The translations under genes were made by a program, and so were the position numbers. Shown one piece after another: positions 52,074-52,165 of a stretch of 64,000 nucleotides of DNA (positions are counted from its first letter, which is position 1; each line of letters opens with the position of its first letter). The DNA comes from an uncultured Candidatus Actinomarina sp. (GTDB lineage: Bacteria; Actinomycetota; Acidimicrobiia; Actinomarinales; Actinomarinaceae). The stretch spans positions 44,454-108,453 of the forward strand of contig CACKFQ010000004.1 of NCBI GenBank assembly GCA_902599555.1, in the 5' to 3' direction. The notes beneath the pieces were generated by a model. That model had not been told where the DNA came from. It did not search any database and saw nothing but the letters and a program-made list of their open reading frames with translations.

Positions 52074-52079
52074 AATTCC

Positions 52080-52105
52080 AAAAAAAAACCCTTGCAACGC
52101 AAGGG
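52080..52105 (-). terminator. Intrinsic (rho-independent) terminator: 7-bp GC-rich hairpin plus T9
   Basis: Minus strand reads CCCTTGC-GTT-GCAAGGG (52105..52089), followed by TTTTTTTTT (52088..52080). It is the only conspicuous GC-rich palindrome with a T-tract in a non-coding gap of this window. Confidence 0.8.
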
Positions 52106-52128
52106 TAACAACGCTTAATACGTTGCTC

Positions 52129-52155
52129 CTAAATAATAATTATAATTTTTTTCAT
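52129..52155 (-). CDS. Leader peptide MKKIIIII (8 codons plus TAG)
   Basis: Minus strand reads ATG AAA AAA ATT ATA ATT ATT ATT TAG, beginning 10 nt after the TAA of the upstream gene. It is below the ORF-track length cutoff. No obvious SD, so initiation could be by reinitiation or coupling. Confidence 0.5.
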   Translation of the reverse strand: MKKIIIII

Positions 52156-52165
52156 TGTGACAATA

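Follow-up and report, generated by a model that had tools for sequence, protein, structure and literature searches.

In a stretch of 64,000 nucleotides from an uncultured Candidatus Actinomarina sp. (contig CACKFQ010000004.1; this whole stretch is called the window in the following), the citramalate synthase gene cimA is preceded by a short leader, which most likely works in cis as a ribosome-mediated transcription attenuator that responds specifically to isoleucine (Ile). It would control cimA and probably also the following gene acs, and we put the probability of this reading at about 0.8. The leader consists of a short open reading frame (ORF) ending in five Ile codons, a hairpin at its stop codon (H1) and an intrinsic terminator (T) in front of cimA. 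These parts, their conservation, covariation and geometry as well as the agreement of the leader codons with the genes under control are in silico results. The ATG of the leader is located 10 nt past the TAA of an upstream lipoprotein ORF, and the locus is laid out as follows:

52858..52166, minus strand: upstream lipoprotein ORF with the lipoprotein signal LVFSAC; its TAA is at 52168..52166
52185..52190, minus strand: -35-like hexamer TAGACA of the leader, found by a consensus scan within the 3' end of the lipoprotein gene
52163..52168, minus strand: -10-like hexamer TAATAT of the leader, overlapping the upstream TAA stop and ending 7 nt 5' of the leader ATG
52155..52129, minus strand: leader ORF MKKIIIII including its TAG stop, ATG AAA AAA ATT ATA ATT ATT ATT TAG
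52132..52146, minus strand: five Ile codons ATT ATA ATT ATT ATT, the proposed regulatory codons
52129..52121, minus strand: GGAGCAACG
52127..52107, minus strand: hairpin H1, 8 bp, AGCAACGU-AUUAA-GCGUUGUU, beginning 1 nt past the stop codon, the proposed ribosome-gated element
52106..52088, minus strand: terminator T, 8 bp, ACCCUUGC-GUU-GCAAGGGU, adjoining H1 with a spacer of 0 nt
52088..52080, minus strand: U-tract of nine U, the first of which closes the terminator stem
50517..52073, minus strand: cimA, citramalate synthase, the regulated gene, with its ATG at 52073, 6 nt past the U-tract
48520..50466, minus strand: acs, acetate-CoA ligase (NF001208, 1020 bits)

A preliminary description of this DNA had proposed the Ile-codon leader in front of cimA as a candidate Ile attenuator. 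Its positions for the leader ORF, the hairpins, the U-run and the cimA ATG all hold on the minus strand, as does the exact complementarity of GCAACG (52126..52121) to CGTTGC (52099..52094), and the proposal itself is well supported by conservation, covariation and codon tuning. The same description had also warned that the Ile run could have arisen by chance in AT-rich DNA, or that the hairpin could be a mere upstream terminator; neither concern survived the comparison. Although the window has a GC content of 31%, the pattern (ATH)5 followed by TAR occurs only once on both strands of the window, whereas dinucleotide-preserving shuffles expect 0.03 occurrences. Runs of at least five Ile codons are found at three places in the six frames of the window, and two of these are the leader locus on its two strands. 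Compared with shuffled sequences, H1, T and both together reach z values of -3.8, -3.9 and -4.3 in the window, H1 scoring -7.9 kcal/mol and T -11.5 kcal/mol. A second motif match at 24992 on the minus strand was rejected as a chance match, as it is located inside an ORF of 411 amino acids and folds with only -8.1 kcal/mol. In the high-GC background of about 942 kb, counted strand-specifically, only 44 runs of at least three Ile codons were detected, about 37 of which are the leaders themselves. As the same layout recurs in Acidimicrobiia with mostly 60-72% GC, the Ile run is not an artefact of AT richness, and chance is excluded as its source.

For the comparative analysis we used 80 cimA loci from species-representative genomes and 14 from metagenomes spanning the range of CimA identity (single loci carry L numbers). 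The layout of promoter, Ile-ended ORF, H1 and T was found upstream of cimA or leuB-(ilvE)-cimA at 75 loci, mostly from Acidimicrobiia with 60-72% GC. The entire arrangement is kept in 14 relatives from the Actinomarina clade (L001-L003, L036 and L084-L093; 15 loci counting the window), whose CimA proteins are 57-94% identical to that of the window according to BLASTP. Their leader peptides comprise the variants MKKIIIII, MQKIIIIV, MMNIIIII, MINFIIII, MINFIIIT, MKIIGIIIM and MKIIGIIIL, and the variation is confined to residues outside the Ile run. In the Acidimicrobiia with 60-72% GC the layout is positioned about 70-135 nt 5' of cimA behind differing upstream genes, and the short ORF closes with III, IIII or IIIII, usually plus one further codon; its stop codon is followed by a strong hairpin and the terminator. 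These leaders follow the pattern M-x(4-9)-III(I)-x-stop with ORFs of 8-13 codons. Conservation of the short ORF and its Ile run upstream of cimA, which the preliminary description had singled out as a check, therefore extends over the Actinomarina clade and the high-GC Acidimicrobiia. Its setting as a feature of low-GC marine actinobacteria has to be revised, as the comparison of these sequences places the element class-wide in the Acidimicrobiia and it is absent from the low-GC loci L081-L083. At 21 loci the element is located about 1.2-2.3 kb upstream of cimA, and in the three annotated cases (L045, L059, L071) it precedes leuB-cimA or leuB-ilvE-cimA. The contigs L029, L041, L049, L062 and L065 also carry the element and are labelled as Armatimonadetes, Verrucomicrobiales or Acidobacteriota bins, whereas their CimA and leader look Acidimicrobiia-type; binning error or horizontal transfer could be behind these labels.

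Alignment of the raw set with MAFFT and RNAalifold recovered only four terminator pairs owing to register shifts, which was resolved by a covariance model with a seed of only five high-GC sequences. Searching with this model yielded 73 matches in 69 of 91 sources, about 70 of them genuine, and a single match in the window (52081..52143, minus strand, 16.6 bits). In the resulting alignment, which was fitted to the model structure, 96.4% of the cells are paired and compensatory changes are present in 18 of 19 pairs (10/10 in H1 and 8/9 in T), so that the covariation of the stems suggested as a check in the preliminary description is indeed found. The covariation score of 0.544 compares with 0.207 for shuffles, none of 500 reaching the observed value, and with 0.02-0.11 for slid-partner controls. 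Across the relatives, H1 and T are more stable than their shuffles with median z values of -4.6 and -4.3. The pairing of H1 is kept though its sequence differs between lineages: the 5' arms of 37 loci comprise 24 different octamers. A fairly conserved sequence (GCGCAYRC...GYGUGCGC) is shared by many high-GC lineages, the paralogous leaders of ilvB and of the operons among them.

The leader codons match the genes behind them. In the cimA-adjacent leaders (n = 48) Ile accounts for 65% of the last five codons, and Val is absent from the top eight residues listed (each at least 0.02), while leaders of leuB-(ilvE)-cimA operons (n = 21) have 46% Ile and 27% Val at the same positions. Furthermore, L068 has an additional, identically built copy upstream of ilvB, whose leader ends with ...TVLLIT and thereby offers V-L-L-I codons:

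6440-6600 of L068, plus strand: ilvB element with promoter TTGACA-N17-CATACT, leader MTNTPLTTVLLIT with its stop codon, hairpin GCGCACGCG/CGCGTGCGC at the stop and terminator GACCCTCCG/CGGAGGGTC

Such tuning is what an amino-acid sensor predicts and can be explained neither by chance nor by a plain terminator. The ilvB copy also indicates that the module of stop codon, hairpin and terminator is generic for branched-chain amino-acid genes in Acidimicrobiia. As a further observation, the high-GC leaders L004-L068 show an enrichment of Thr codons immediately 5' of the Ile run (TTIIIT, TTTIIIT, TSTAIIIID), with Thr making up 8% of the last five codons, and it might be that Thr scarcity also derepresses the threonine-independent Ile route.

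The geometry of the element is equally constant. H1 is present in all 75 elements. In 74 of them its start falls at -3 to +1 nt relative to the stop-codon end, and its length is 8-14 bp, again in 74 of 75. The spacer between H1 and T measures 0-5 nt in 73/75 elements (median 2), the regulatory codons are located 0-2 codons before the stop, and a canonical intrinsic terminator with a U-tract closes all 75 elements. The stop codon is UAG in 54, UAA in 15 and UGA in 6 cases, and the G of UAG usually forms the first pair of H1. UAG is seemingly over-represented for high-GC genomes; we speculate that it might help by prolonging the stay of the ribosome or by pairing its G into H1.

The promoter of the leader in the window reads TAGACA-N16-TAATAT, with 7 nt between the -10 element and the leader ATG. 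Of the 37 loci examined, including the window, 33 have a TTGACN/TAGACA-N16-19-(C/G/T)ATACT-like pair, and in these 33 the distance from the end of the -10 element to the leader start codon is 6-12 nt with a mode of 9. The TAGACA/TTGACN layout is also kept in further loci of the Actinomarina clade. No Shine-Dalgarno (SD) sequence was found upstream of the leader ATG of the window, whereas acs has the motif GGGGAG. Based on this spacing and the lack of an SD, the leader is most likely translated from a leaderless or nearly leaderless mRNA. Leaderless mRNAs are common in Actinomycetota. In the window the promoter sits within the terminal part of the lipoprotein gene, with the -35 element within the codons ...VRQ... 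and the stop codon TAA contained in the -10 hexamer TAATAT, which makes for a compact layout in this streamlined genome.

The regulated enzyme is, judged from profile matches, a genuine citramalate synthase and not 2-isopropylmalate synthase LeuA: the protein reaches 612.5 bits against TIGR00977 (cutoff 450) with an alignment from residue 2 onwards, while the best LeuA model gives 274.9 bits at a cutoff of 517 and all LeuA models stay far under their cutoffs. The assignment to CimA in the preliminary description is thereby confirmed. CimA of the window is 94% identical to that of the Ca. Actinomarina single-cell genome L001. The gap between cimA and acs is 50 nt, acs has its own SD as mentioned above, and no terminator-like hairpin was found in this gap; the gene order cimA-acs is retained in L086-L089 and L091. 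It is therefore probable that acs is co-transcribed with cimA.

Based on these data we propose that H1 acts as a ribosome-gated switch. Transcription would begin at or a few nt from the leader AUG, and a ribosome would translate the eight-codon ORF. If Ile-tRNA is plentiful, the ribosome would reach the UAG, unwind and cover the 5' arm of H1, T would form and transcription would end at the U-tract. If Ile-tRNA is scarce, the ribosome would stall within the Ile run at a distance of 0-4 codons from the stop, H1 would stay folded and the polymerase would read through into cimA. With an assumed ribosome coverage of about 12 nt beyond the first nucleotide of the A site, a stall at the first Ile codons leaves H1 intact and a stall at the last Ile codon touches its first few nt, whereas a ribosome at the stop codon has to open practically the entire 5' arm. 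The position of the stop codon and this footprint together thus assign the folded H1 to starvation and the melted H1 to sufficiency. The conserved geometry agrees with the idea of the preliminary description that the 5' arm of the first hairpin is masked once the ribosome has reached the stop; the anti-terminator switch that the description had attached to this step found no support.

How a folded H1 could suppress T is the weakest step, as H1 and T share no arm. The explanation that we favour is steric: a folded H1, positioned 0-5 nt from the 5' base of T, might set this base against the stalled ribosome or against a helix barred from the RNA exit channel of the polymerase, so that the lower terminator stem would be unable to close in time, whereas a melted H1 would provide 15-20 nt of slack. 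By our own arithmetic, the effective stretch of RNA between the P site of the ribosome and the polymerase active site in the window would amount to about 22-34 nt with T folded. This is at or under the length that fits between ribosome and polymerase in contact, as seen in expressome structures. As T likely ends the lipoprotein operon, the untranslated default should be termination, which favours the need for a stalled ribosome over an effect of H1 alone. We regard the steric suppression as a conjecture that has a real chance of being correct, yet a smaller one than of being wrong. More tentative again is its extension to a minimal two-hairpin attenuator without alternative base-pairing, in which H1 would serve as a ribosome-operated length switch throughout the class, for cimA as well as for leuB-ilvE-cimA and ilvB.

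In addition to the missing shared arm, several results weigh against attenuation as proposed here. The minimum-free-energy structure of the window holds H1 (-8.6 kcal/mol) and T (-11.9 kcal/mol) side by side at -20.5 kcal/mol and not as the alternatives which the preliminary description had assumed, and both hairpins coexist in every minimum-free-energy fold across the elements, with or without ribosome masks. In a purely thermodynamic view, this coexistence predicts termination in all ribosome states. RNAduplex comparisons of all pairs of segments (5' leader, Ile run, H1 arms, spacer and T arms) revealed none that beats shuffled sequences. Equilibrium folding with ribosome masks formed the terminator in every state, also in the thr leader (thrL) of E. 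coli that served as control. As equilibrium folding thus misses the anti-terminator even in thrL, we adopted a nascent-RNA test, in which the ribosome footprint is masked and only the RNA as far as the terminator loop is folded. Here the control behaved as a classical attenuator: of the 16 nt of the terminator 5' arm, 9 were sequestered if the ribosome occupied the regulatory codons, but none without a ribosome or with one at the stop codon. The cimA elements sequestered 0 nt of the T 5' arm in 60/75 cases and at most 3 nt in 74/75; the window, L001 and L002 reach 2 nt and L036 5 nt, and only 11 of 75 elements showed an overlap of at least 2 nt. Judged by this test, which does pick up the anti-terminator of thrL, the element family lacks a shared-arm anti-terminator and with it one defining feature of classical attenuators. 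Other points concern the supporting evidence: the covariation alignment favours the structure to which it was fitted, the transcription start was placed by hexamer spacing alone, and T probably also terminates the upstream lipoprotein operon in the window. Finally, no leader, hairpin or terminator is present upstream of cimA in the low-GC loci L081-L083, whose CimA is 64-71% identical; in these, cimA follows 0-38 nt behind nadC, gltX or another gene (L081:1489-1500, L082:1463-1500, L083:271). This absence indicates that the attenuator was lost or replaced in some marine lineages.

Three further ideas were considered, the first two of which were rejected. A frameshift at hungry Ile codons, by which the ribosome could pass through T, would end at once in the +1 frame of the window (UAA) and in the H1 loop in the -1 frame (UAA). 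Pairing of the A7 run of the leader with the U-tract occurs in the minimum-free-energy fold of the window and is absent from L003, L036 and all high-GC relatives. A kissing interaction of the H1 loop with the G-rich 3' arm of the terminator would involve variable loops and 3-4 nt at best. As a control for abutting hairpins at ordinary terminators, the collected sequence offered only eight non-leader terminator-like sites, some of which are probably leaders as well.

An obvious alternative is the classical scheme of the preliminary description, in which the stalled ribosome promotes an anti-terminator made with terminator nucleotides, either by extending H1 by GG:CC into the first two C of T or by pairing GCAACG with CGUUGC in the loop and 3' arm of the terminator. 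The extended H1 with its bulged A (-10.9 kcal/mol) is the best nascent fold of the window before the 3' arm of T is made, the few nucleotides that it sequesters in the window, L001, L002 and L036 have been given above, and small overlaps at the terminator base are sufficient in protein-dependent systems of ribonucleic antiterminator (RAT) and terminator. But the extension adds only 2.3 kcal/mol to H1, in combination with the residual 5-bp terminator the total is -15.5 instead of -20.5 kcal/mol and thus 5 kcal/mol worse, the probabilities of the GG:CC pairs are 0.002-0.003, the GG would be covered by a ribosome stalled on the later Ile codons, and the overlap is confined to close relatives and a minority of the elements. 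The second pairing reaches -6.3 kcal/mol with a probability of about zero, and the terminator loop sequence that it needs is not conserved (L001, L002, L003 and L086-88 differ). This comparison of energies disfavours both anti-terminators and weakens the RNA switch of the preliminary description, so that we consider classical alternative hairpins improbable. Less probable still is that the leader senses Ile while H1 only serves as a polymerase pause signal synchronising the ribosome, with regulation exerted elsewhere, for instance by Rho, on mRNA stability or on cimA translation. The trp and his leaders are known to have pause hairpins at this position, and such a role would agree with an anti-terminator that is undetectable in folding, duplex and nascent-RNA tests. 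In addition, leaderless Cys-rich short ORFs of mycobacteria act on translation (bioRxiv 10.1101/834739). A pause alone, however, gives the same outcome for a stalled and an unstalled ribosome and leaves the short spacing between H1 and T unexplained, T is a canonical intrinsic terminator in all elements, and the SD of the high-GC cimA genes is located 20-60 nt beyond T and is therefore not sequestered by it.

Two further explanations do without an Ile-sensing ribosome and have the comparative data against them. One can ascribe hairpin and U-run to termination of the lipoprotein operon only and the Ile ORF to AT-rich DNA without any regulation, in line with the low GC content of the window and with T being the first terminator-like site past the lipoprotein gene. 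We judge this very improbable, since five Ile codons with a stop are expected 0.03 times per window, the layout recurs at 60-72% GC with different upstream genes, and hairpin covariation, codon tuning to the regulated genes and the conserved promoter contradict it. The least probable explanation in our view is a functional hydrophobic micropeptide, or an H1 that binds a protein, a tRNA or a metabolite like a T-box or riboswitch. The conserved H1 sequence of many high-GC lineages could be taken in its favour, but in the peptide only the Ile/Val run and its distance from the stop are conserved, H1 differs wholly in sequence between lineages with its pairing kept (24 octamers in 37 loci), a hairpin of 8-13 bp whose loop varies is too small to hold a ligand pocket, and there is no Rfam match, the T-box included. 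Ribosome-mediated attenuation in response to Ile remains the reading that we prefer.

Two observations concern the neighbourhood of the locus. The aconitase gene at 54731..56995 (minus strand) matches best to the 'mitochondrial-type' model TIGR01340 (1045 bits, cutoff 825), with lower scores for the bacterial AcnA/AcnB models. Six tRNA genes are clustered at 47439..48019 (His, Arg, Gly and Pro on the minus strand, Lys and Leu on the plus strand) immediately downstream of the hotdog thioesterase-acs-cimA block, and in L001 and L036 the locus is bordered by the same tRNAs.

If our interpretation is correct, the leader provides independent evidence at the sequence level that the threonine-independent citramalate route is the regulated entry into Ile synthesis in Ca. 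Actinomarina and across the Acidimicrobiia. Ca. Actinomarina belongs to the smallest free-living marine bacteria, and we know of no genetics in this genus or in the Acidimicrobiia lineages concerned. The streamlined genome would keep an amino-acid-specific control in an RNA of about 110 nt without a regulatory protein. For annotation, leaders with Ile only point to cimA, those with Ile and Val to leuB-ilvE-cimA and those with Val-Leu-Leu-Ile to ilvB, and an Ile-only leader can mark CimA versus LeuA among near-identical synthase homologues. The 75 natural variants without a shared-arm anti-terminator represent a tractable system for studying whether hairpin abutment or ribosome proximity can by itself overcome an intrinsic terminator, and the length switch, if true, would be a physically new mechanism by which intrinsic termination is coupled to where the ribosome stands. 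For Ile biosensors in actinobacterial hosts, the element is furthermore a candidate for a compact part.

A search of the window and ten related loci against Rfam 15, which contains the Thr, Leu, His and Trp leaders, the T-box and ilvB-related motifs, brought only tRNAs above the gathering threshold; at permissive E-values the best match on the leader region was RprA with 26 bits versus a threshold of 70. We found no description of a leader peptide, attenuator or T-box for cimA or citramalate synthase in the full-text literature, subscription-only papers not covered. The arrangement most closely resembles the actinobacterial ilvB attenuators, in which branched-chain codons near the stop of a short ORF are followed by a Rho-independent terminator and the biosynthetic gene; besides the ilvB1 upstream ORF (uORF) of M. 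tuberculosis, such leaders comprise the ilvB-II motif of Corynebacterium (PMC10272879) and candidate ilvB leaders (Seliverstov et al., 2005; PMC1262725). According to the model for the M. tuberculosis uORF, a ribosome at the stop codon masks the following hairpin and a stalled ribosome leaves it intact, with a ribosome footprint of 26 nt and with anti-terminator and terminator as mutually exclusive folds (PMC13236596). The masking of the next hairpin by a stop-positioned ribosome is what we propose for the cimA element, whereas the mutually exclusive folds have no counterpart, as H1 and T of the cimA elements share no nucleotides in 60/75 cases. Moreover, the cimA leader ORF ends before H1, unlike the ilvB ORFs of Seliverstov et al., which overlap the terminator (PMC1262725), and the regulated genes are cimA or leuB-ilvE-cimA with Ile-only codons compared to the L/V/I mix of the ilvB leaders. 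The ilvB leader of identical build in L068 suggests that the cimA element is a paralogue of the ilvB leader group re-tuned to Ile.

Codons for the end product and an intrinsic terminator are also shared with the enterobacterial thr, ilvGMEDA, ilvBN, leu, his and trp leaders, as is the stalling-dependent readthrough proposed here. The codons of enterobacterial leaders mirror the regulating amino acids, Thr and Ile in thr and Ile, Val and Leu in ilv. These leaders have at least four segments and a 2:3 anti-terminator using the T 5' arm (9/16 nt in thrL), compared to 0-3 nt in the cimA elements, and their ORFs have SD sites and 5' untranslated regions, while the cimA leader is apparently leaderless and only 8-13 codons long. 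The poly-Cys short ORFs of mycobacteria are leaderless and act on translation by sequestering the downstream SD without an intrinsic terminator (bioRxiv 10.1101/834739). They have in common with the cimA leader the apparently leaderless start, a codon run for one amino acid near the 3' end, the proposed sensing of charged tRNA for an operon of the pathway of this amino acid and the origin from Actinomycetota, and they differ from it in the canonical terminator with U-tract and in the SD of the high-GC cimA genes, which is located outside the structures. In attenuation of the pyrBI/pyrE type the proximity of the ribosome blocks folding of the terminator, and in pyrBI the signal is polymerase pausing at low uridine triphosphate. 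If the steric suppression of T is right, the cimA element would likewise depend on a bulky neighbour and not on alternative RNA pairing; the pyrBI leader ORF runs through the terminator, whereas the cimA ORF stops 22-30 nt before T, so that H1 would have to relay the position of the ribosome. Leader attenuators of branched-chain amino-acid genes are thus known already, and an Ile leader on cimA is unsurprising to a specialist; it is the absence of a classical anti-terminator above all, together with the class-wide conservation and the codon tuning of the paralogues, that makes this element worth an experiment.

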